Of a stretch of DNA of 57,773 bases, positions 369 through 13,371 are shown in pieces. The position numbers were made by a program, and so were the translations under genes. Origin of the DNA: Clostridia bacterium (GTDB lineage Bacteria; Bacillota; Clostridia; Christensenellales; Aristaeellaceae); NCBI GenBank assembly GCA_017436605.1, contig JAFSCW010000125.1, forward strand, positions 1 to 57,773. Reading direction: 5' to 3'. The notes under the pieces are model-generated. The model was not told the DNA's origin. It did not search any database and saw only the letters and a list, made by a program, of their open reading frames with translations. Each line of letters opens with the position of its first letter. Within the stretch, counting starts at the first letter, position 1.

Positions 369-416
369 GGGGCATTAGCACGGTTGGTAGCAGCGCATTC
401 GCATTGCTTGGAGCAC
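369..416 (+). repeat. E1b: diverged or truncated copy of the module that resembles a tRNA(Ala) 5' half
   Basis: GGGGCATTAGCACGGTTGGTAGCAGCGCATTCGCATTGC shares GGGG, GGTAGC, GCGC and ATTCGC blocks with E1-E3. It has no T-arm or CCA part. Confidence 0.55.
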
Positions 417-596: not shown

Positions 597-1361
597 ATGG
601 AAACAAAAGATGTTATTCTGAGACTAAGAACAGACAAAGGCTTATCTCAAGATGAACTGGCTGAGAAAGTATATGTTACGCGTCAAGCCGTATCCCGTTG
701 GGAAAATGGAGAAACCACGCCAAACACCGAAACACTAAAACTGCTTTCCAAACTGTTCAATGTTTCTATCAATACACTTCTCGGTTCTCCACGACAGCTG
801 ATCTGCCAATGCTGTGGTATGCCATTGGAGGATACGAATATCAGCAAAGGAACGGATGGTTTTTTTAATGAAGAATACTGTAAATGGTGTTATGCAGATG
901 GAGAATACATGTATCATAACATGGATGACTTAATTGACGTCTGCATAAGCCATATGGCAAATGAACATTTCACACCCGAACAGGTACGCTTGCATATGAA
1001 GGACATGCTCCCGAAATTGAACTATTGGAAAAACTATACGAATTTGGCAGGAGCAGAAAAGTTTGAAGAGTTCAAAAGACAGCTTATAAATGAAATAAAC
1101 GCCCTGCACGTAGAAGGTATGCCGAGAGTAGAAAAACTGAATGCACTTGTAGGAGGATACATCAATCTTGAATATCGGCTGCCCAATGGAAAATGTGTGA
1201 AGTTCTTAAATGACGAAGCAACCTACTTGGGAAACCAGCTGGAATGTGAATTCGGCGGAGACAGATGTTTTGGGATTGCCGCCAACATGGATTTTATCAT
1301 GGTATCTACCTATGAGAAAAATGGCGAAAACCCAGAACTTGTCATTTACAAAAAAAGATAA
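597..1361 (+). CDS. XRE-family HTH regulator fused to a Cys4 zinc-ribbon and a C-terminal domain of unknown function
   Basis: N-terminus LSQDELAEKVYVTRQAVSRWENGETTPNTETLKLLSKLFNVSINTLL is an HTH_3 signature. It is followed by CQCCG...CKWC. RBS GAGGTGA lies 7 nt before the ATG. Confidence 0.85.
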   Translation: METKDVILRLRTDKGLSQDELAEKVYVTRQAVSRWENGETTPNTETLKLLSKLFNVSINTLLGSPRQLICQCCGMPLEDTNISKGTDGFFNEEYCKWCYADGEYMYHNMDDLIDVCISHMANEHFTPEQVRLHMKDMLPKLNYWKNYTNLAGAEKFEEFKRQLINEINALHVEGMPRVEKLNALVGGYINLEYRLPNGKCVKFLNDEATYLGNQLECEFGGDRCFGIAANMDFIMVSTYEKNGENPELVIYKKR

Positions 1362-1371
1362 ACTAACCTCG

Positions 1372-1490
1372 ATTTGCACATTACAGTATCCATGTCTCGC
1401 GTTTGGGGGCTGAGTTACGCATGCTTCGGTAGCGCGCTACATTCGCTATTCACGAGGTCGTAGGTATCGAATTCCTATATGCTCCACCAC
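1372..1490 (+). repeat. E2: conserved 3'-module copy 2, the best tRNA(Ala)-like copy
   Basis: GGGGC 1406-1410 pairs with GCTCC 1481-1485 (G3:U70), followed by A1486 and CCA 1487-1489. Contains the palindrome GTAGCGCGCTAC at 1429-1440. Confidence 0.85.
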
Positions 1491-1491
1491 C

Positions 1492-1519
1492 AAACCCTTC
1501 TCTTAAGAGAAGGGTTTTT
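1492..1519 (+). terminator. Intrinsic terminator following E2
   Basis: AAACCCTTCTC-TTAA-GAGAAGGGTTT followed by TTG. Homology to the E1 unit continues to 1535 (TTTTGCTTCATATACAGAAT). Confidence 0.85.
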
Positions 1520-1606
1520 GCTTCATATACAGAATATTGTATGAGCACGGAAAACTTGAATTTGTCGAACAGATAAAAATATATAGATTAAAGCAATTAA
1601 CGGAGT

Positions 1607-1972
1607 ATGAATATGAGATATAATTGGATTGATGATTATTTGTTATCAAAAAAAGGGGTAACAAAAAATCTTGAGAACTGGAATTGGATTAGATATCAAA
1701 TTATGGGCAAAATGTTTGCAGCAGTGTGTTGCGATGAGGCGGGAGTGCCTTATTGCATTACCTTAAAACTTGAACCAAACGAAGGCGCTTTTTTGCGGGA
1801 ACAGTATAAGGATATTTATCCCGGTCACTACATGAATAAAGTGCATTGGAATTCTATCAATCCAGATGGGGAAGTGCCAGATGATTTGTTAAAAGACTTG
1901 CTGGACAAATCGTATGGACTAATACTGGCAGGTTTTAGCAAAAAGAAACAAATGGAGATACTGGCAGAATAA
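1607..1972 (+). CDS. MmcQ/YjbR-family DNA-binding protein
   Basis: The 121-aa product contains ...ITLKLEPNEGAFLREQYKDIYPGHYMNKVHWNSI..., which is typical of the YjbR/MmcQ fold family. The start could be the second ATG at 1613. Confidence 0.8.
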   Translation: MNMRYNWIDDYLLSKKGVTKNLENWNWIRYQIMGKMFAAVCCDEAGVPYCITLKLEPNEGAFLREQYKDIYPGHYMNKVHWNSINPDGEVPDDLLKDLLDKSYGLILAGFSKKKQMEILAE

Positions 1973-1986
1973 CGGAGGGTAAAAGT

Positions 1987-2250
1987 ATGGCGAATTATAG
2001 TGTTTGTGGCATTGATTGTGATACATGTAAATTCAAAACAGAGCAAAATTGTAAAGGTTGCAAGGAAATAAAGGGTAATGTGTTTTGGGGCGAATGCGAA
2101 TTGTACAAGTGTAACGAAGAAAAGAAGCAGGAACATTGTGGCAAGTGTCCGGAATTTCCTTGTGACAAATTGAAAGAATGGGCTTCATCTGAAAATCCAG
2201 AAAGAATTGAGAACCTAAAAAGAATATTACAAATTCCAATTTGCAGATAG
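1987..2250 (+). CDS. DUF3795-like cysteine-rich small protein
   Basis: 87 aa with CGIDCDTC...CKGC...C..C...CGKCPEFPCDKL. RBS GGAGGG lies 7 nt upstream. The last 7 codons overlap the start of E3. Confidence 0.75.
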   Translation: MANYSVCGIDCDTCKFKTEQNCKGCKEIKGNVFWGECELYKCNEEKKQEHCGKCPEFPCDKLKEWASSENPERIENLKRILQIPICR

Positions 2251-2355
2251 CAGTTACTATTCACTTGCGTTGTGGCTGAGTTATGCACGCTTCGGCAGCG
2301 CGCTGCATTCGCTATTCACGAGGTCGTAGGTATCGAATTCATATATGCTCCACCT
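2231..2355 (+). repeat. E3: conserved 3'-module copy 3, the most diverged
   Basis: Core 2291-2356 differs from E2 at 4 positions. Two of these are the compensatory pair that turns GTAGCGCGCTAC into GCAGCGCGCTGC. It ends CCACCTC, so the CCA is lost. Confidence 0.85.
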
Positions 2356-2357
2356 CG

Positions 2358-2396
2358 TCACCACACGGTATTCATATAAACCTGTGGTGATTTTTT
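2358..2396 (+). terminator. Intrinsic terminator following E3
   Basis: TCACCACACGG-12 nt-CCTGTGGTGA followed by TTTTTT. Confidence 0.8.
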
Positions 2397-2403
2397 ATTG
2401 CCG

Positions 2404-2450
2404 AAAAAAGCCCGGAAGCCTTGCAGACCACAGAGGTTTCCGGGCTTTTT
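2404..2450. terminator. GC-rich bidirectional terminator at the AT-rich/GC-rich junction
   Basis: AAAAAAGCCCGGAA-20 nt-TTCCGGGCTTTTT, with an A-run on one side and a T-run on the other. Confidence 0.7.
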
Positions 2451-2600
2451 GCTATTGCTCGCGGTTAAGCGTCCGGCGATGCGAATAGCGGCATTTAGCC
2501 TCTTTCCGGCCTCCACCATCCGAAAAGCACAAACCGTCATCTTCCGATAAAAATAATTGTTGTTTTTTCTAAAATATCTGCGAAATATTCAAAGTGTTTT

Positions 2601-2629
2601 TTGACATTCAGTCAATACTCTGGTACAAT
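2601..2629 (+). promoter_or_regulatory. Near-consensus promoter of the Na+ symporter gene
   Basis: TTGACA (2601-2606), 17-nt spacer ending TGG (extended -10), TACAAT (2624-2629). This shows that the ORF-track start at 2601 is an artefact. Confidence 0.75.
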
Positions 2630-2663
2630 AAAGTGCAACAAATTACAGAGGAGTATGACTCTT

Positions 2664-4004
2664 ATGCAAAATCGTGAACGACTGTCTTCAAGACTCGGCT
2701 TCATCCTCCTGAGCGCAGGCTGCGCCATCGGCTGCGGCAACGTCTGGAAATTTCCCTGGATGGCCGGTCAGTACGGCGGCGGCGGCTTTGTGCTGATCTA
2801 CGCGCTGTGCCTCATCCTGCTCGGTCTGCCGGTCATGGTCATGGAATTCGCGCTGGGACGCGCTTCCCAGGCGAGCCCCGTGCGCATGTACCAGAAGCTC
2901 GAGAAGCCCGGCCAGAAATGGCATATCCACGGCTATCTGGCGCTCTTTGGCAACGTCTGCCTGATGTCCTTCTACACCGTCGTCTCCGGCTGGATCCTGT
3001 ATTACTTCGTCAGCTTCCTGACCGGCAACAACGCGGATCTGGGCTTTGTCAGCATGATCACCAACCCGGGCCTGAACATGCTCTACATGGGTATCGTGGT
3101 CGTCCTCGGCTTCCTCATCCTCAGCTATAACCTTCAGGGCGGTCTGGAGCGCGTAACCAAGGTCATGATGGTCGCGCTGCTTCTGCTGATGATCGTGCTG
3201 GCTGTCAACTCCGCGACGCTCTCCGGCGCCGCCGAAGGCCTCAAGTTCTATCTTCTGCCCGACTTTGCCAAGATCGACGCGAGCGTGATCGTCGGCGCGA
3301 TGAACCAGGCGTTCTTCACGCTGAGCCTGGGCATCGGCTCCATGGCGATCTTTGGCAGCTACATCGGCAAGGAGCGCACGCTGCTGGGCGAGTCCGTGAA
3401 CATCATCGTCCTGGACTCCTTCGTCGCCATCACCGCCGGCCTGATCATCTTCCCCGCCTGCTTCACCTACGGCGTGGAGGTCAATGCCGGCCCGTCCCTG
3501 CTGTTTGATACGATGGCCACCGTCTTCAACAACATGGCCGGCGGCAGGTTCTGGGGCAGCCTCTTCTTCCTGTTCATGGTCTTTGCGGCCATGTCCACCA
3601 TTCTGGCCGTGTTTGAGAACATCCTCGCCTGCGTGCGCGAGCTGACCGGCTGGAGCCGCCCGAAGGGCTGCATCGTCTGCGGCGTCGTGCTGTTCATCAC
3701 CTCCACCACCACCGCGCTGGGCTACAGCGTCATCAAGTTCCAGCCCTTCGCGGAGGGTTCCGCCTGGCTGGATCTGTGGGACTTCTTCGTCTCCACCAAC
3801 CTGCTGCCGCTGGGCTCTCTGGCCTTCGCCGTTTTCTGCTGCAATAAGCGCTATGGCTGGGGCTGGGACAAGTTCGTTGCTGAAGCCAACACCGGCAAGG
3901 GTCTGAAGGTTCAGCCGTGGATGAAGCCGCTGTTCGCCTATGTGGTGCCCTGCGCCATCATTCTGCTGTATGTCATCGGTCTGATCAACTTCCCGTGGCG
4001 CTGA
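2664..4004 (+). CDS. Sodium-dependent transporter of the SNF/NSS family
   Basis: Contains the GCAIGCGNVWKFPW NSS signature and is multi-TM throughout. RBS GAGGAG precedes the ATG at 2664; 2655 is an alternative start. Confidence 0.9.
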   Translation: MQNRERLSSRLGFILLSAGCAIGCGNVWKFPWMAGQYGGGGFVLIYALCLILLGLPVMVMEFALGRASQASPVRMYQKLEKPGQKWHIHGYLALFGNVCLMSFYTVVSGWILYYFVSFLTGNNADLGFVSMITNPGLNMLYMGIVVVLGFLILSYNLQGGLERVTKVMMVALLLLMIVLAVNSATLSGAAEGLKFYLLPDFAKIDASVIVGAMNQAFFTLSLGIGSMAIFGSYIGKERTLLGESVNIIVLDSFVAITAGLIIFPACFTYGVEVNAGPSLLFDTMATVFNNMAGGRFWGSLFFLFMVFAAMSTILAVFENILACVRELTGWSRPKGCIVCGVVLFITSTTTALGYSVIKFQPFAEGSAWLDLWDFFVSTNLLPLGSLAFAVFCCNKRYGWGWDKFVAEANTGKGLKVQPWMKPLFAYVVPCAIILLYVIGLINFPWR

Positions 4005-4022
4005 TCATCCTTCGCAAATTCA

Positions 4023-4054
4023 AGTCCTCTCCCCTCCGGGAGAGGACTTTTTTA
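4023..4054 (+). terminator. Intrinsic terminator
   Basis: AGTCCTCTCCC-CTCC-GGGAGAGGACT followed by TTTTT. Confidence 0.85.
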
Positions 4055-4108
4055 TATAGGCCCAAAAATCTTTTATGCGCTGAAGCGGTACAAGGGGAAA
4101 GCCGGATA

Positions 4109-4138
4109 TTGCCAGCCGATATGTCTTTATGATATAAT
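4109..4138 (+). promoter_or_regulatory. Promoter of the CoA-transferase gene
   Basis: TTGCCA, 18-nt spacer, TGATATAAT (extended -10). Confidence 0.6.
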
Positions 4139-4192
4139 GCGTGCTAATCGGCTTTATTCTCCCGGCATTTTATTCCAGAAAGGCGGACAACC

Positions 4193-5704
4193 ATGTACCG
4201 TATCATGACAGCGGACGAAGCGATCAGCCTGATCCGAGACGGCGACTGCATCTGCGTCAATTCCTTCGTCGGCATTGAAAACCCGGTCGAGCTCCATGAG
4301 GCGCTCTACCGCCGATATCAGAAGACCCACTCCCCCAAGCATCTGACCGTCGTTTCCAGCGCAGGCTTCGGCGTCTGGGACGAGGACAGGAGCGCAGAAG
4401 GCTATATCCGCGACGGCGCGGTCGACCGCCTGATCTGCGGCCATTTCGGCGCGATGCCCAGCACGAAGAAGATCATCCTTGAAAACCGCTTCGAAGCGTA
4501 CAACCTGCCGCTGGGCTGCATCTCCCATGCCATCCGCGCGCAGGCTGGCGGCATCCCAGGCGCGCTGTCCAAGGTCGGTCTGGATATCTTCGTCGATCCC
4601 CGCCGCGACGGCCCGGGCATCAACCAGATCTCTACCGACAGTTCGTTTGTCAAGCTCGTCGTCGTGGACAACGAGGAATTCCTCTACTACAAGCTCCCCA
4701 AGATCACCGTCGCGCTGATCAAGGGCACCGCCGCCGACCGCAAGGGCAACATCTCGTTTGACGATATGTACATGTCCGGCGACGCGCTGTCCATCTGCCA
4801 GGCAGCAAAATCCAACAACGGCATCGTCATCGTGCAGGTCGACCGCATTGTCGACATGCCCTCCCGCCCGCGCAACGCCATCATCCCCGGATGTCTGGTG
4901 GACGCCATCGTCGTCGAGAAGCCGGAAGCGCGGGACGACGCTTTCACCGCGCTCACGGGCAGCTTCGAGATTCCCTTTGAGGAATGGAGCTCCTGGACGG
5001 AAAAGCTCGAGGCCGTCACAAACGCCAGCCGCCAGCGCAGCCTCGCCGCGCATATCATCGGCCAGCGCGCCGAGCGCGAGCTGCACAAGGAGGATATCGT
5101 CAACATCGGCATCGGCATCCCGGAGATGGTCTCGCATTATGCCCGCCAAAGCGGCATGCTCGATCACATCACCCTGACCGTCGAATCCGGCGGCATCGGC
5201 GGCTTCCCGGCCTCCGGCAAGGTCTTCGGCGCGATGATCGGCGCGGCCTCCGTCTACGATATGGCCAACCAGTTCGACCTGTACAACCACGGCGGTCTGG
5301 ATATCTGCTTCATGGGCGCGCTGGAGGTCGACCGCTACGGCAACGTCAACGCCCACCGCGGCCCCGGCGCATACGCCGGCATCGGCGGCTTCGCCAACAT
5401 CACCGCACAGACGCCGACCGTCGTCTTCTGCCTGACGTTCAACACCAAGGGGCTCGAGGTCAGCCGGGACGGGGAGAATATCACCATCGAGCGCAACGGC
5501 TCCGTGCCCAAGTTCGTGCAGACCGTGCGCTCAATGAGCTTCTCCGCGCGCAATGCGATCAAAAACGGACAGAAGGTACTCTATATCACCGAGCGCTGTG
5601 TGTTCATCCTCACCGCCCGCGGTCTCAAGCTGCTGGAGGTTTACCCCGGCGTGGACGTCGAGCGCGATATTCTCTCGCAGCTCCCGTTCGATATTGAGGT
5701 CTGA
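4193..5704 (+). CDS. Family I acyl-CoA:acetate/propionate CoA-transferase (Pct/YdiF-like)
   Basis: 503 aa. Long collinear similarity to remembered propionate CoA-transferase sequences, for example ...VLYITERCVF.LT..GLKL.EV.PG.D.E.DIL at the C-terminus. Confidence 0.85.
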   Translation: MYRIMTADEAISLIRDGDCICVNSFVGIENPVELHEALYRRYQKTHSPKHLTVVSSAGFGVWDEDRSAEGYIRDGAVDRLICGHFGAMPSTKKIILENRFEAYNLPLGCISHAIRAQAGGIPGALSKVGLDIFVDPRRDGPGINQISTDSSFVKLVVVDNEEFLYYKLPKITVALIKGTAADRKGNISFDDMYMSGDALSICQAAKSNNGIVIVQVDRIVDMPSRPRNAIIPGCLVDAIVVEKPEARDDAFTALTGSFEIPFEEWSSWTEKLEAVTNASRQRSLAAHIIGQRAERELHKEDIVNIGIGIPEMVSHYARQSGMLDHITLTVESGGIGGFPASGKVFGAMIGAASVYDMANQFDLYNHGGLDICFMGALEVDRYGNVNAHRGPGAYAGIGGFANITAQTPTVVFCLTFNTKGLEVSRDGENITIERNGSVPKFVQTVRSMSFSARNAIKNGQKVLYITERCVFILTARGLKLLEVYPGVDVERDILSQLPFDIEV

Positions 5705-5729
5705 TCCGCAGCACAATGATAAAGATAAG

Positions 5730-5767
5730 CGGCTTCTCTCCCGCCGGGGCTGAGAAGCCGTTTTTTC
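5730..5767 (+). terminator. Intrinsic terminator
   Basis: CGGCTTCTC-12 nt-GAGAAGCCG followed by TTTTTTT. Confidence 0.8.
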
Positions 5768-5853
5768 ATCCAAACCTGACGTATTGGCGTTCGGCTCCTT
5801 TTACGGATGGATGTTCTTTTCTGTATTTCCTGTTAGTATTGCGCCGCGCCGCA

Positions 5854-5883
5854 TTGCAGTTTTCAAAGTGCATATGATATAAT
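5854..5883 (+). promoter_or_regulatory. Promoter of LRR paralog 1
   Basis: TTGCAG, 18-nt spacer, TGATATAAT. The -10 context CATATGATATAAT is echoed upstream of paralog 2. Confidence 0.55.
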
Positions 5884-5943
5884 ATTGGAAAACCAAGGAA
5901 TCTGCCAGCTTTTTGCTGCATGTCCAGAAAAGGAAGTGTCCAT

Positions 5944-8700
5944 ATGTTCCGCAAAGCTCTGGCGCTGATGCTGTGCCTGTGCATGGCATGCTCATTCGCC
6001 CTTGCCGAAGAGCTTCCGGTGGAAACGGCTGTTGAAGCCGTCGCCGAAGAAGCCCCCATCGAAGAAGCTCCTGCAGAAGAAGCTCCTGCCGAAGAGGCTC
6101 CTGTCGAAGAAGCTCCTGTCGAGGAGGCTCCCGTCGAGGAGGCTCCCGTCGAGGAGGCTCCCGTCGAGGAAGCTCCTGCCGAGGAAGCTCCTGTCGAGGA
6201 GGCTCCCGTCGAGGAGGCTCCCGTCGAAGAGGCTCCCGTCGAGGAGGCTCCTGTCGAGGAGGCTCCCGTCGAGGAGGCTCCCGCTGAGGAGCTGCCCGTG
6301 ATCGATGAGCTTCCCGCCATCGAAGAAATGCCTGAAGAAGACGAATCTTCCGACGAAATCCCGGCTGAGGAAGACGCCGTGACGGAGGAAGACGCCGTAC
6401 TCCCCGAGGAAGATCTGCTGCCGGCGATCGATGAAGAGGTCATCGCCGAGGAGGTTATCGTCGGTGAAGCCGAGCTTCCCGTTTACAGCGCGACCAGCGG
6501 CAAATGGAACGGCCTGTCCTGGACATATGCCGACAAGGTTCTGACCATCACCGGCTCCGGCGATATGGAGACCGGCGATACCGATTATCCGTGGGCGGAT
6601 CTGGCAGCGTCTGTCAAGGAAATCCGGATCGGCGATTATGTGACCGGTATCGGTCGGTACGCATTCCAGAATTTCACGTATCTGAAAACGCTGGTTCTCG
6701 GTTCCCGCGTAACCCAGATCTACGATTACGCCTTCTACGGATGTGAGAGTCTCAGCGAGGTAAACTTCGCCTCCGCCGCCAAGCTGGAAATCATCGGCAG
6801 TGCCGCATTTTATAACTGCAACAATCTGGAGAACATCGTGTTCCCTTCCAGTCTGAAGATGCTCCACGCGAACGCCTTTGCCGAATGCGACTATCTGACC
6901 TCCGTAACGCTGCCCGATAATCTCGAATACATCGGCTACAGCGTATTCATGAACTGCGGCTGGCTGCGCGGCCATGTGACCATTCCTGCGACCGTCACGA
7001 AGTTCTATGATACCGCATTCTACGGCACCAATCTCTCCAGCGTCACCATCAACGCAAACTGCGCAATTCCCAAGCAGGCCTTCTATCTCTGCGACTCGCT
7101 GACTACCGTGACCTTCGGCAGCGGCGTAACCGGAATCGGCGAATCCGCATTTGAAAACTGTACGGCGCTGACAGACGTCAACATCCCCGGCACCGTCAAA
7201 ACCATCGGCCAAAGCGCTTTTGAAGGCTGCACCTCCATGGCCAACCTGACCCTGAACGAGGGTCTGAATGAGATCGGCTACGAGGCCTTTTATCTTTCCG
7301 GCATCACCTCGCTCACGCTGCCCAGCACGGTTACCTACATCAACGATAAAGCCTTCGTTTCCTGCAGGTCGCTCAAGACGGTCGATATGAGCAAGCTCGT
7401 CCAGTGCACGCTGCGTCCGAGCCTCTTTGTCGGCTGCACCGCGCTGACCACCGCCAACCTTGGCGCCGCCTGCATCACGGGCATCCCGTCGTATTGCTTC
7501 GAATCCTGCAAGTCCCTGACCGACATCACCTGGCCGCCGAACCTGACCATCATCAGCAACAACGCATTCCAGGCCTGCCCGGGACCTGCCTCCATCGTGC
7601 TGCCCTCCTCCGTGACAACGATTTCTGCCTACGCTTTCAGCGGATGCAGCAATGTGAAGAGCGTCACGCTCGGCAAGAATATCGAAAGCCTCGGTTACGG
7701 CGCCTTCAACTGCTCTGCGCTGGAAGAGCTCACCATCTACAGCGCTGACGCAGAAATGAACTACATGTGCCTCACCGGCTCCAAGGCGCTGACGATCTAC
7801 GGCTATGCCGGCTCCACGGCCGATGTATACGCCTCGGAGAACGGCATCAACTTCGTCGAGCTTTCCGGCTCCATGGCCGCGCCCGACGCCCCCGTCCTCT
7901 CCCGCATTCAGAACACGACCTCCGGTATCCGCATCACCTGGAAGCCTGTCGCCGGCGCGACGCATTACGCCGTCCTGCGCACGACGAGCGAAACCGGAAC
8001 GGGCTATCTCACGATCAAGGATTCCGTGACCTCGACCAGCTTCGACGACAAGAACGTCCTCACCGGCAAAACCTATCGCTACGTCGTTATGGCCTACAAC
8101 GGCGCGATCGATTCCGCGTATTCCAATGAGCTGTCCCTCGTCCATGTCGCCTCGATCGCCCTGCCCACCTGCACCAACAGCCTCGCCGGCATCAAGCTGA
8201 GCTGGAAGCTGAGCGAAAATGCGACCGGCTATGCGCTCTTCCGCAAGAACATTACCGACGGCGAAAACTGGAAGCGCATCAAGACCGTATCCGCCAGCAC
8301 GAGCTCGTATACCGACTCCGTCGTGTGCAACAGCCAGGGCAAGGCATATCAGTATCAGGTCCGCGCGCTCTACGGTACAGAGCTCGCTGCCTCCCGCTCC
8401 GCCGGAACCGGCATCCTGCGCATCAAGGGGCCGACGCTGCGCAGCGCCGAGGTCGCGGGCAAGAACGCCATCAAATGTACATGGTCCACGTCCAAGACCG
8501 TCGAGGGCTACCAGATCCGGTTCTATGCAGACGCTTCCTATCAGCGTATGTTCCAGATCAATACCGCCTCGACCTTCAAAAAGACCTTCACCGGCCTGCG
8601 CTCCGGCGTGACGTACAAGGTTCAGGTTCGTTCCTTCCAGTCCTACGAGGGTGTGAACCACTATTCCGCCTGGTCCTCTGCGATCAACCTCGAGCTGTAA
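5944..8700 (+). CDS. Secreted BspA-type leucine-rich-repeat protein with an acidic (EEAPV)n spacer and three C-terminal Fn3-like domains (paralog 1)
   Basis: Signal peptide MFRKALALMLCLCMACSFALA. Many repeats of about 23 aa of the form IP.SVT.IG..AF..C..L. The C-terminal modules contain motifs such as ...G.T.Y.V.A.N. RBS GGAAG precedes ATG 5944, and this start is shared with paralog 2. Confidence 0.9.
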   Translation: MFRKALALMLCLCMACSFALAEELPVETAVEAVAEEAPIEEAPAEEAPAEEAPVEEAPVEEAPVEEAPVEEAPVEEAPAEEAPVEEAPVEEAPVEEAPVEEAPVEEAPVEEAPAEELPVIDELPAIEEMPEEDESSDEIPAEEDAVTEEDAVLPEEDLLPAIDEEVIAEEVIVGEAELPVYSATSGKWNGLSWTYADKVLTITGSGDMETGDTDYPWADLAASVKEIRIGDYVTGIGRYAFQNFTYLKTLVLGSRVTQIYDYAFYGCESLSEVNFASAAKLEIIGSAAFYNCNNLENIVFPSSLKMLHANAFAECDYLTSVTLPDNLEYIGYSVFMNCGWLRGHVTIPATVTKFYDTAFYGTNLSSVTINANCAIPKQAFYLCDSLTTVTFGSGVTGIGESAFENCTALTDVNIPGTVKTIGQSAFEGCTSMANLTLNEGLNEIGYEAFYLSGITSLTLPSTVTYINDKAFVSCRSLKTVDMSKLVQCTLRPSLFVGCTALTTANLGAACITGIPSYCFESCKSLTDITWPPNLTIISNNAFQACPGPASIVLPSSVTTISAYAFSGCSNVKSVTLGKNIESLGYGAFNCSALEELTIYSADAEMNYMCLTGSKALTIYGYAGSTADVYASENGINFVELSGSMAAPDAPVLSRIQNTTSGIRITWKPVAGATHYAVLRTTSETGTGYLTIKDSVTSTSFDDKNVLTGKTYRYVVMAYNGAIDSAYSNELSLVHVASIALPTCTNSLAGIKLSWKLSENATGYALFRKNITDGENWKRIKTVSASTSSYTDSVVCNSQGKAYQYQVRALYGTELAASRSAGTGILRIKGPTLRSAEVAGKNAIKCTWSTSKTVEGYQIRFYADASYQRMFQINTASTFKKTFTGLRSGVTYKVQVRSFQSYEGVNHYSAWSSAINLEL
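6046..6300 (+). repeat. Seventeen in-frame 15-bp tandem repeats encoding EEAP(V/A/I)
   Basis: GAAGAGGCTCCCGTC-type units are directly visible in the sequence. Confidence 0.95.
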
Positions 8701-12192: not shown

Positions 12193-13371
12193 ATGAATTA
12201 TCGTTCAGACAGATATGGCAATCCCATTTCCATGCTCGGCTTCGGCTGCATGCGCCTGCCCATGAAGCTCGGGCGCATCGACATGCCGGAGGCCGAGCGC
12301 GAGATCATGGCGGCCATCCATGCGGGCGTCAATTACTTCGATACCGCCTATATCTACCCGGGCAGCGAAGCCGCGCTCGGCGAAATCCTCGAAAAAAACG
12401 GCATGCGCGATCGCGTGAACATCGCCACGAAGCTCCCGCATTACCTGATCCGCAGCCGCGAGGGCATGGACAAGCTCTTCAGCGAGGAGCTGCGCCGCCT
12501 GCGCACCGATCACGTCGATTACTACCTCATGCACATGCTCACCGACGTCAAGACCTGGGAGCGGCTGAAGGCGATCGGCATCCTCGAATGGCTCGAGGAA
12601 AAGAAAAAAAGCGGCGCCATCCGTCAGGTCGGTTTCTCGTACCACGGCAATTCCGACATGTTCTGCCGGCTCATCGACTGCCATAACTGGGATTTCTGCC
12701 TGATCCAGTACAACTACATGGATGAACACTCTCAGGCGGGCAGGCGCGGGCTGCATTACGCGAACAGCAGGGGACTCCCCGTCTTCATCATGGAACCGCT
12801 GCGCGGCGGCAAGCTCGTCAGCCGCCTGCCCGAGGAAGCCCGACGCATCTTCGCCGGCCACGCCGTGCAGCACAGCCCTGCGCAGTGGGCCTTCCGCTGG
12901 CTCTATAACCAGCCCGAGGTGACCTGCGTGCTCTCCGGCATGAACTCGATGGACATGGTGATGGACAACATCCAGACCGCCTCCAGCGCGTCCGTCGGCG
13001 AACTGACCCCGCAAGACGAGGAGATGCTCTCCCGCGTGGTGAAGGCCATCAACGCCAAAATGAAGGTCGGTTGTACGGGCTGCGGCTACTGCGTCCCCTG
13101 CCCGAAGCACGTCGATATTCCCGGAACATTTGCCAGCTACAACCGGCTGTACTCCGAAAGCCGATTCTGGGGAAAAATCGACTACATCATCTGCACGCTG
13201 CTGCGCAGGACGAATTCCGGCGCGTCCAACTGCGTCGGCTGCGGCAAATGCGAAATGCACTGCCCGCAGCACATCGCCATCCGGCAGGAGCTCAAAAACG
13301 CGGAGCGCGCCCTCGAAGGCCCGCTGTACCGCGCCGCGCGCACGCTGCTCAAAAAGCTCAAGCTCTTCTGA
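12193..13371 (+). CDS. Aldo/keto reductase with a C-terminal 4Fe-4S ferredoxin-type domain
   Basis: MNYRSDRYGNPISMLGFGCMRLP is an AKR N-terminus. CTGCGYCVPCP and CVGCGKCEMHCP are cluster motifs. RBS GGAGGG precedes ATG 12193. Confidence 0.85.
   Translation: MNYRSDRYGNPISMLGFGCMRLPMKLGRIDMPEAEREIMAAIHAGVNYFDTAYIYPGSEAALGEILEKNGMRDRVNIATKLPHYLIRSREGMDKLFSEELRRLRTDHVDYYLMHMLTDVKTWERLKAIGILEWLEEKKKSGAIRQVGFSYHGNSDMFCRLIDCHNWDFCLIQYNYMDEHSQAGRRGLHYANSRGLPVFIMEPLRGGKLVSRLPEEARRIFAGHAVQHSPAQWAFRWLYNQPEVTCVLSGMNSMDMVMDNIQTASSASVGELTPQDEEMLSRVVKAINAKMKVGCTGCGYCVPCPKHVDIPGTFASYNRLYSESRFWGKIDYIICTLLRRTNSGASNCVGCGKCEMHCPQHIAIRQELKNAERALEGPLYRAARTLLKKLKLF

Follow-up and report, generated by a model that had tools for sequence, protein, structure and literature searches.

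Foreign DNA accumulates in tandem at tRNA genes, and cis-mobilizable elements (CIMEs), which carry no integrase, join such arrays by accretion (PMC5704250). Here we describe an arrangement of this general kind at the left end of a 57,773-nt stretch of DNA from a Clostridia bacterium of the order Christensenellales (GenBank assembly GCA_017436605.1, contig JAFSCW010000125.1; hereafter the window), which contains three 84-nt modules, E1 (172-255), E2 (1406-1489) and E3 (2272-2355), all on the plus strand. An earlier note on this DNA had drawn attention to alanine-tRNA-like features of these modules and had read them as a possible tRNA mimic or, alternatively, as a decayed tRNA-derived repeat. 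We consider it likely that E1-E3 are degraded copies of tRNA-Ala(CGC) at the junctions of tandem integrase-less cassettes, which were inserted site-specifically into that gene. The observations behind this explanation are homology to a true tRNA gene, the architecture of the locus in other genomes, a fixed junction, the comparison of an empty with an occupied site, and the loss of tRNA features in the copies.

Site-specific insertion into tRNA-type genes, displaced gene fragments and tandem arrays are known; the present locus is set apart by a crossover in the D loop, by junctions that look like a full-length tRNA whose 5' half has been substituted, and by cassettes of minimal size. As in the CIME and Islander systems, the target tRNA and direct displaced fragments of it flank foreign DNA and older elements are pushed along (PMC5704250, PMC4383910), and, as with CIMEs, some elements keep att sites without an integrase. 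The displaced repeat in those systems usually starts at the anticodon or T loop, whereas here it starts in the D loop and spans ~59-64 nt. Moreover, each junction here has a pseudo-5' half, so that the 'fragment' resembles a whole tRNA, each unit is a cassette of 0.6-1.7 kb with a single gene, and only serine-type recombinases, not tyrosine-type ones, are seen at the junction. At the time of the 2014 Islander survey, serine recombinases were not known to target tRNA genes (PMC4383910). In Dehalococcoides, tandem islands with CcrB-family serine recombinases occupy the tmRNA gene ssrA (PMC3146451); like the present arrays they target one conserved RNA gene, carry direct repeats and include members without an integration module, but the islands extend over many kb, and their repeats are ~20 bp in length and derive from the 3' end or T loop. 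Compared with both the ssrA islands and SCCmec, our locus differs in its target (a tRNA D loop), its full-length tRNA look-alike junction and its tiny cassettes, and its link to a recombinase is drawn from just two prophages. The composite SCCmec and psi-SCC arrays are likewise tandem, with direct repeats, and use a CcrB-family large serine recombinase with rlmH as target.

Three further systems share part of this behaviour. The tycheposon islands of Prochlorococcus have partial tRNAs scattered through them (bioRxiv 10.1101/2020.12.28.424599) and resemble our locus in repeated integration beside tRNA genes and in degenerate cargo, a minority of them using a large serine recombinase; unlike the cassettes described here, they have their own integrase and often replication genes, are much larger, and belong to another host phylum and another target tRNA. 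Integron arrays are similar in that their cassettes point the same way, hold one or two genes and no recombinase, are each followed by a repeated site, and have comparable cargo (GNAT, Cass2/GyrI-like and small unknown proteins), but here there is no IntI, attI or attC core, the site is a tRNA derivative with a terminator, and the cassettes have promoter-like leaders. In tRNA-dependent lysogeny, tyrosine integrases act on a core of ~10 bp, and a separate phage tRNA gene compensates (PMC10865867). There, as here, integration does not always rebuild a working tRNA at the junction; in our case, by contrast, the left copy stays intact because its 3' part comes from the inserted DNA.

The three modules are true repeats, since their core 20-mer occurs three times in the window against 0.01 occurrences expected; some 65 nt are nearly invariant in their alignment and the flanks diverge. 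In E2, GGGGC (1406-1410) faces GCTCC (1481-1485), followed by A1486 and CCA (1487-1489), and just 5' of the acceptor 3' strand lies AGGTC-GTAGG-TATCGAATT-CCTAT. E1 has GGGG at 172-175, CTCC at 248-251, A252 and CCA at 253-255. The identity set G3:U70, A73 and 3' CCA is thus present in E1 and E2. E3 carries GTGG, so that U2 faces C71; in its T stem a C of the 3' strand has become A (TTCATAT), and positions 2353-2355 read CCT. On re-reading, the earlier note had placed all of these bases correctly, including the T-arm-like hairpin, and the degeneration of E3 is as it stated.

A sister contig (L013; loci and contigs are cited by such numbers) is colinear with the window and carries GGGGCATTAGCACAGTTGGTAGCGCGCTACATTCGCATTGTAGAGGTCACCGGTTCGAATCCGGTATGCTCCACCA at the position of E1. 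Its positions 65-140 are called as tRNA-Ala(CGC) by ARAGORN and score 64.2 bits with the Rfam tRNA model (E = 1e-13), and what follows the gene, terminator included, is the sequence that also follows E1. The likeness of E to a tRNA is not due to chance, because a profile built from E1-E3 only matches this tRNA-Ala(CGC) unit with E = 2.5e-23. E2 is identical to the L013 tRNA at 59/76 aligned positions: the block GGTAGCGCGCTACATTCGC, from D loop to anticodon, and the end ATGCTCCACCA are unchanged, while the 5' part is 5 nt longer and divergent after GGGGC. The 3' strand of the anticodon stem has changed from TGTAG to TTCAC, both strands of the T stem have changed from ACCGG/CCGGT to GTAGG/CCTAT, and the T loop has 9 nt instead of 7. 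Because a true tRNA replaces E1 in L013, the G3:U70/A73/CCA set, the GGGG/CTCC pairing and the T-arm-like hairpin are best read as inherited from tRNA-Ala(CGC), and on this comparison they appear as an inheritance rather than as an evolved mimic. E3 occupies the native chromosomal tRNA-Ala(CGC) position, as E3 and the terminators behind it (window 2294-2447) align to L036 1489-1638, a native locus with a true tRNA and two terminators. The suggestion of a decayed tRNA-Ala-derived repeat is therefore borne out by the genuine gene at the E1 position. Its 'SINE-like' part (short interspersed element) is not, as copies at a single tRNA locus, in direct order and joined at the same D-loop nucleotide are the signature of site-specific insertion.

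The same layout is found in other genomes. A scan with a conserved 19-mer, using one genome per species and reading 8-kb windows, returned at least 118 loci. Among the loci listed, most are single tRNA-Ala(CGC) genes in metagenome-assembled genomes (MAGs) of Clostridia/Christensenellales, each with a lineage-specific native terminator; the taxa include Limiplasma, Ventricola and Egerieenecus, and many come from ruminant guts. E-type copies were present in at least 11 loci from at least nine MAGs (L038, L042, L055, L072, L081, L086, L088, L100, L102, L113 and L120). On the left of such arrays stands an intact tRNA gene followed by an element-type terminator (…AAGACCTTCTC…GAGAAGGTCTTTT); in the middle lie 0.6-1.7 kb of DNA with 35-44% G+C and one or two genes; on the right is an E-type copy, in which a 22-nt pseudo-5' half (GGGG[A/C]TGA…TTC) meets the tRNA 3' part at GGTAGC. 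The native terminator follows the last copy of an array, which adjoins the chromosome. A complete two-cassette array lies within a 98-kb contig at L038. In L072 and L086 the 3' part of the hybrid is the host's own tRNA variant and the pseudo-5' half is of the cross-species type. The cargo of the arrays comprises GNAT, Cass2/GyrI-like, RibD_C, nucleotidyltransferase, phosphoesterase, PAP2, HNH, XRE-regulator, YjbR and DUF3795 genes. The Islander signature, an intact tRNA and direct displaced fragments flanking foreign DNA, is seen in eight loci (L038, L042, L055, L072, L081, L100, L102 and L120); the intact tRNA partner of the window's own array is known only from sister contig L013. The Islander definition also places an integrase within the island, and no recombinase domain was found in any interval between copies.

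An empty and an occupied site could be compared directly. L087 and L081 share their flanks, with 92% identity on the left and 88% on the right. In L087 the flank is followed by the tRNA and the native terminator. In L081 the same flank and the tRNA are followed by the element terminator and an AraC/GyrI-like gene; a left arm and GGGGATGATATAGAGATAGTTC come next, and 59 nt from the tRNA 3' part lead into the same native terminator. Relative to L087, L081 has an insertion of 1,428 bp, which starts at the GG of the D loop and whose 22-mer at the right junction is identical to that of E1 in the window.

The position of the joint does not vary. Five unrelated left sequences (the E-type sequence and those of L034, L067, the second copy of L092, and L151) join the tRNA at exactly GGTAGCGCG, and right-type junctions all begin at GGTAGC. 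Fragments of the tRNA 5' part that adjoin foreign DNA end in …AGTTGG (L184) or …GGTAG (two tandem copies in L036). The core common to left- and right-type junctions is GG, at most GGTAG, which is shorter than tyrosine-integrase overlaps usually are. Very short shared cores are typical of serine recombinases. The two tandem L036 fragments (1262-1283 and 1361-1382; GGGGCATTAGCACAGTTGGTAG) are 22-nt 5' pieces of tRNA-Ala(CGC) just upstream of the intact gene, each followed by unrelated sequence, and are scars of left-type junctions.

Candidates for the recombinase come from two IMG/VR prophage contigs, L034 and L035, which encode proteins of 548-560 aa with Resolvase, Recombinase and Zn_ribbon_recom domains. 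These large serine recombinases are 68% identical, and their genes end ~90 nt before the junction. The L035 junction arm (GGGGATGAGTTAGGCATAGTTC) matches cassette type-B arms at up to 19/22 positions, and the arm of E2 in the window at 18/22; farther out the sequences are unrelated. More distant relatives of the recombinase (36-39% identity) stand beside tRNA-Ala genes in 4/21 loci. A domain search found no recombinase in any cassette, and tblastn with the L035 protein found none in the window or the array loci; in having no recombinase inside, the cassettes are CIME-like. From this we infer a phage-type large serine recombinase that would act in trans. The 22-nt pseudo-5' half would be a P-type half-site, its GGGG being kept as part of the recognition sequence. 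In this half the distance from GGGG to the crossover is 22 nt as against 17 nt in the tRNA, 5 nt farther, and a 5-nt offset reportedly separates the attP and attB half-site models that Rutherford and Van Duyne put forward in 2013.

A second tRNA locus has a comparable structure. Upstream of intact tRNA-Pro(TGG) genes, a unit of ~300 nt occurs in two copies in L021 (5780-6445) and in one copy in L026 (1080-1441); it consists of the tRNA-Pro 5' part up to the D loop (GGCGCAGTTGG) followed by G+C-rich foreign sequence. A GNAT cassette homologous to the first gene of the window lies ~350 nt downstream at this locus. This suggests that the same D-loop recombination acts on a second tRNA sharing the CAGTTGGTAGCGCG motif.

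The proposed cassette would run, from left to right, from a copy of the tRNA 3' part through an intrinsic terminator, a right arm, one or two cargo genes and a left arm to the 22-nt pseudo-5' half; the right arm would carry a promoter-like -10 hexamer and a conserved leader, and sometimes the additional pseudo-copy E1' described below. Insertion at the GG of the D loop would leave an intact tRNA at the left end of the array and a hybrid of pseudo-5' half and tRNA 3' part to the right of each cassette, and later insertions into the leftmost, intact tRNA would shift older cassettes rightward. As the crossover lies in the D loop, the junction resembles a whole tRNA. The window copies would afterwards have lost the anticodon stem and gained a 9-nt T loop while retaining four to five acceptor pairs, and recombination of E copies with one another and with the true tRNA would have kept them alike. 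Two contributions of E copies are still demonstrable, a terminator that serves the cargo gene upstream and homologous sequence through which cassettes can be exchanged. More tentatively, we propose as a possibility an integron-like capture platform in gut Christensenellales/Clostridia, in which tRNA-Ala(CGC) look-alikes would serve as att sites of integrase-less single-gene cassettes, a phage-type large serine recombinase acting in trans would stack these at the D-loop GG, and the junctions would double as insulating terminators.

If the insertion model holds, the identity elements of the 'alanine-tRNA mimic' are a fossil of the insertion target and not an adaptation, and the locus presents minimal cassettes with integron-like cargo in little-studied gut anaerobes. 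Should the trans-acting recombinase prove real, the short D-loop site and its cassette partner could form a natural landing-pad pair for engineering these organisms.

Several observations weigh against this account. In the cassette site the left half is P-type and the right half does not differ from the tRNA, and because of the latter the site resembles attR; a serine integrase alone should not recombine attR with attB. E3 is of the window type, whereas a simple model predicts the true 3' part of the host at this position, so gene conversion is needed there, which is indirectly supported by the chimeric copies described below. The left end of the window's array, with its predicted intact tRNA, lies outside the window, and every matching contig ends inside the array, as is expected where assemblies break at repeats; chimeric assembly is possible in contigs of MAGs and metagenomes that do run across repeats. 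In the window-type T stem all bases pair, owing to two double changes, and GGGG and G3:U70 are widely kept (see the pair counts below), which may reflect some RNA-level constraint or residual processing of a co-transcribed 3' untranslated region (UTR). Finally, E-type copies elsewhere were found with a fixed 19-mer, and conservation of that block is partly ascertainment since it served as the search bait.

How far the copies still resemble a tRNA bears on both the insertion model and its main competitor. ARAGORN finds neither a tRNA nor a tmRNA in the window, in keeping with the earlier note's remark that the modules do not fold into a cloverleaf, and their anticodon stem is broken. The Rfam search, a check that the note had called for, gave no tRNA among the window copies at the gathering threshold (29 bits) and nothing relevant at E <= 10 over positions 1-2700, and a known RNA family was set aside as an explanation on these grounds. 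The only tmRNA matches were chance-level ones to the permuted tmRNA model in L013 and L038 (19 and 17 bits against a gathering threshold of 47). With the Rfam tRNA model, the true tRNA of L038 scores 64.2 bits; among E copies, one whose 3' part is intact scores 32.2 bits in an alignment that lacks a D arm, and one whose T arm is altered is not matched. The full set of tRNA arms (7-bp acceptor, D arm, 5-bp anticodon stem, 7-nt T loop) is absent from the window copies. Isolated 84-nt modules can adopt the proposed fold of acceptor and T hairpin, without extra stability over shuffled sequences (z = 0.03, -1.76 and +1.01); a stable structured RNA was likewise rejected, the 84-nt and 150-nt folds being mostly no better than shuffles.

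Pair counts were made on an alignment (A3) of 28 distinct sequences, namely 27 E-type copies and the true tRNA. Acceptor pairs 1-4 are retained in 25-27/28 and G3:U70 in 27/28, so that the GGGG/CTCC pairing and G3:U70, whose conservation the earlier note had wished to see examined, do persist among homologues. Pair 5 is retained in 15/28 and unpaired in 13/28, and pairs 6 and 7 are unpaired in 26/28. The anticodon stem is broken in every window-type copy, and the acceptor 5' strand does not track the 3' strand of the host, save in L072. The T stem occurs as three haplotypes, the true one, a hybrid one with a mismatch, and the window type. Variants in the population (TAGA, TTCATAT) disrupt T-stem pairs and have no compensating change. 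Among ~19 contigs of one population the E cores show 23.4 differences per kb, unpaired T-stem variants included, as against 7.5 in other non-coding DNA of the island and 1.4 in coding sequence. Chimeric E copies are present in L001 and L013, and recombination within the T loop would explain the hybrid or chimeric copies, such as E1 in L001, and L113. The near-identity of E1-E3 is therefore attributed to concerted evolution and not to purifying selection on an RNA.

Columns 25 and 34 of alignment A3 (window 1430/1439 and 2296/2305) are the variable positions of a 12-nt palindrome, G[T/C]AGCGCGCT[A/G]C, and read T/A in 17 E-type copies, C/G in eight, T/G in one and C/A in none. These columns have no pairing partners in a tRNA, and their joint change may reflect a constraint on DNA or on a local hairpin, or a shared haplotype.

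The competitor with most in its favour holds that the 3' UTR of each cassette mRNA contains E as a working tRNA-like RNA, an acceptor/T-arm minihelix which RNase P or Z would cleave, to which CCA would be added, or which alanyl-tRNA synthetase would charge. E lies between the cargo stop codon and the terminator and is probably co-transcribed; the GGGG/CTCC pairing with G3:U70 is retained as counted above, the two double changes leave the window-type T stem paired, the arm of prophage L035 has a good promoter (TTGCAA, 17 nt, TATACT) before its hybrid copy, and the copy with an intact 3' part still reaches 32.2 bits with the Rfam tRNA model. The tRNA-like domain of tmRNA and acceptor minihelices have a continuous acceptor/T stack of ~12 bp that is under selection, and E shares with them G3:U70, A73 and CCA beside a T-arm-like hairpin. 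Unlike them, E has four to five acceptor pairs, a 9-nt T loop and two mismatches beside the T stem, and it shows neither covariation nor sequence constraint. Set against a functional RNA are also the lack of any tRNA or Rfam match for the window copies even at E <= 10, folds that equal shuffles, the open pairs 5 to 7, the failure of the acceptor strand to covary with the host 3' strand except in L072, common variants that break the T stem uncompensated, and E cores that are the most variable part of the island. Descent from the tRNA accounts for all of the tRNA-like features. We therefore regard a functional RNA as improbable, and the working mimic that the earlier note had envisaged, with roles in alanylation, punctuation or priming, finds no support.

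It is very unlikely that E copies are plain pseudogenes from tandem duplication of tRNA-Ala, with genes inserted later and no mobile cassette: the similarity does span a whole transcription unit, from promoter remnant to terminator, and recombination between copies is evident, but L081 differs from L087 by one precise 1,428-bp insert, the pseudo-5' half and arm are alike in different species, the 3' part being that of the host, five unrelated left sequences meet the tRNA at the same nucleotide, and the cargo is foreign DNA of low G+C. Slighter still is the chance that E is a site like the attC of integrons, or a miniature inverted-repeat transposable element (MITE), bounded by inverted repeats (TTAGACAAATTC ... 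GAATTTGTCGAA), with an incidental tRNA-like core. Cargo breakpoints do fall at E ends, these ends are imperfect inverted repeats, a palindrome (TTCGACAAATgccaATTTGTCGAA) follows the GNAT homologue in L021, and cargo such as Cass2 and GNAT is integron-like. Yet there is no GTTRRRY/RYYYAAC core, no IntI and, in the window's island, no tyrosine integrase; the palindrome has no match in viral contigs; the 'right end' motif lies between a -10-like hexamer and a ribosome-binding site and resembles a conserved leader; some E copies have no left arm (L038 at 6816); and E is never seen off the tRNA locus. This reading was dropped, as the arms are a conserved cassette backbone and the tRNA junction explains the repeats. 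We give next to no credence to a SINE-like or retroplasmid-type element that a reverse transcriptase copies via RNA; an encoded CCA and descent from a tRNA would suit it, but the window's island and the array loci examined contain no reverse transcriptase, and the copies keep to one locus, one orientation and a fixed DNA junction. Inspection of E1 and E3 by eye suggested that GGGG could also pair with a CAGTxxCC segment upstream of it, an alternative that was set aside once the tRNA homology had been found.

The island that carries the modules is distinct in composition. Positions 1-2400 of the window have ~40% G+C and the other 55 kb ~60%, which places the boundary between island and chromosome at ~2400. 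The window starts inside the cassette array, in the 3' end of a gene for a small GNAT acetyltransferase (1-117), the cargo left of E1; the same open reading frame (ORF) occurs in L011 and L001, and its homologues have Acetyltransf_1 and Acetyltransf_7 domains. Between E1 and E2, an ORF and domain search identified a 254-aa protein with an XRE-type helix-turn-helix (HTH) and a Zn_ribbon_2 domain (597-1361). Between E2 and E3 lie a YjbR-family gene (1613-1972) and a DUF3795 gene (1987-2250), a slot (1613-2250) that holds a cyclase gene in other contigs. The island genes are all small and on the plus strand, one E module lies 3' of each unit, and the chromosome follows directly after the E3 terminator.

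Contigs from other metagenomes encode the identical HTH/Zn-ribbon protein with different neighbours: upstream a GNAT gene, an alpha/beta hydrolase gene or another gene, and downstream either YjbR and DUF3795 or the cyclase. The breakpoints between neighbours coincide with the outer ends of E units, which identifies E as the element between cassettes of an array. The window is 99.2% identical to JAFSDT010000330.1 of MAG GCA_017436105.1. No empty site for the window's own flank was present among the loci fetched, and walking leftward through the GNAT gene led to a different locus beside tRNA-Pro in other organisms and not to the left end of this array. Megablast and blastn searches of plasmid and phage collections with the island and E returned no match, and a plasmid or phage origin was dropped for that reason. 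The 20-mer CATTCGCTATTCACGAGGTC has no match in viral, genome and metagenome contigs, and the E-type T-arm pattern none in metagenome contigs. All complete window-type cores were found through look-ups of the window's cassette proteins; outside these, the exception is a degenerate remnant in L088 that retains the GCTATTCACGAGGTC segment. In L003 (2335-2803) the cyclase cargo is followed by AT-rich DNA with short iteron-like repeats of the TTTTTGATT type and then by G+C-rich sequence, with no E3, which represents either another cargo context or a chimeric assembly.

The modules and their surroundings can be delimited as follows. The cassette-borne left arm of E1 (AATTCCAATTTGCACATCTCAGTCCCCACAGTCTTGTATTC) occupies 130-171, where three different upstream genes join in different contigs; L081, from another species-level MAG, has the same arm with one mismatch in the 40 nt compared, and more divergent versions occur in L113, L086 and L035. 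The E1 arm is followed by the type-A pseudo-5' half (172-193), the 22-mer shared with L081, which contains the GGGG taken for an acceptor 5' strand. The tRNA-derived part (194-255) begins with the block that is identical to tRNA positions 18-36, after which come the destroyed 3' strand of the anticodon stem, the T-arm-like hairpin with its 9-nt loop, and ATGCTCC-A-CCA. An element-type intrinsic terminator (256-290; stem 258-268/273-283, then TTTT) closes the unit and is also found after the true tRNA of L013 and in the arrays of other species. E2 has its left arm at 1371-1405, as delimited in the alignment of copies, a type-B pseudo-5' half (GGGGCTGAGTTACGCATGCTTC) at 1406-1427 and a tRNA-derived 3' part, ending GCTCC-A-CCA, at 1428-1489, both placed by alignment A3 and the latter also by its pair counts. 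The terminator of E2 (1492-1517 and a T run) and the right arm, which ends in CTTGAATTTGTCGAA, fill 1490-1575, and from there on the downstream cargo varies between contigs. The alignment of copies likewise places the left arm of E3 at 2232-2271; in this last copy, alignment to L036 separates a pseudo-5' half (2272-2293) from the tRNA-derived part (2294-2355). A native-type tRNA terminator (2358-2396) and a second, G+C-rich one (2405-2450) come next and together span 2358-2450. A perfect hairpin and a T run follow each E module.

A second, different pseudo-copy, E1', lies at 369-462. It corresponds to the 5' two-thirds of tRNA-Ala (GGGGCATTAGCACGGTTGGTAGCAGCGCATTCGCATTGC), with the tRNA-like piece at 369-415 (blastn matches the L036 tRNA to window 369-406) and a terminator of its own at ~427-462. 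Homologous pieces stand at the same place in L038 (5954-6000 and 7000-7045, within 5954-6050 and 7000-7075). E1' lacks a T arm. Some cassettes have it, within their long right arm, and the sequence is conserved between species; it is perhaps a decoy, perhaps what remains of an old left-type junction.

The motif T(T)CGACAAA-nnn-GAATTTG is conserved in the leaders of cargo genes, where a -10-like hexamer precedes it and the ribosome-binding site follows. Sites, including inverted ones, are at window 1556-1570 and 130-146, L021 6790-6812 and 7300-7323, L035 ~12770-12795 and L038 ~7133-7155. The inverted version (TTAGACAAATTCCAATTTG) lies 3' of cargo genes and in L021 takes the form of the perfect palindrome mentioned above. 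The motif could be an operator or a second recombination site.

Some observations unrelated to the cassettes were also made. At 5920-8700 the window encodes a 926-aa predicted surface protein with N-terminal (EEAPV/EEAPA) repeats followed by LRR_5 and fibronectin-like domains, and the opposite strand of the repeat region holds a long serine/alanine-rich ORF. A 151-kb viral contig (L037; IMGVR_UViG_3300036792_000267) has 29 tRNA genes within 5.3 kb (985-6276), including Ala(GGC) and Ala(CGC). In L094, two convergent tRNA-Ala genes (17-91 on the plus and 138-212 on the minus strand) share one common hairpin terminator, and one of them has the anticodon AGC instead of CGC.

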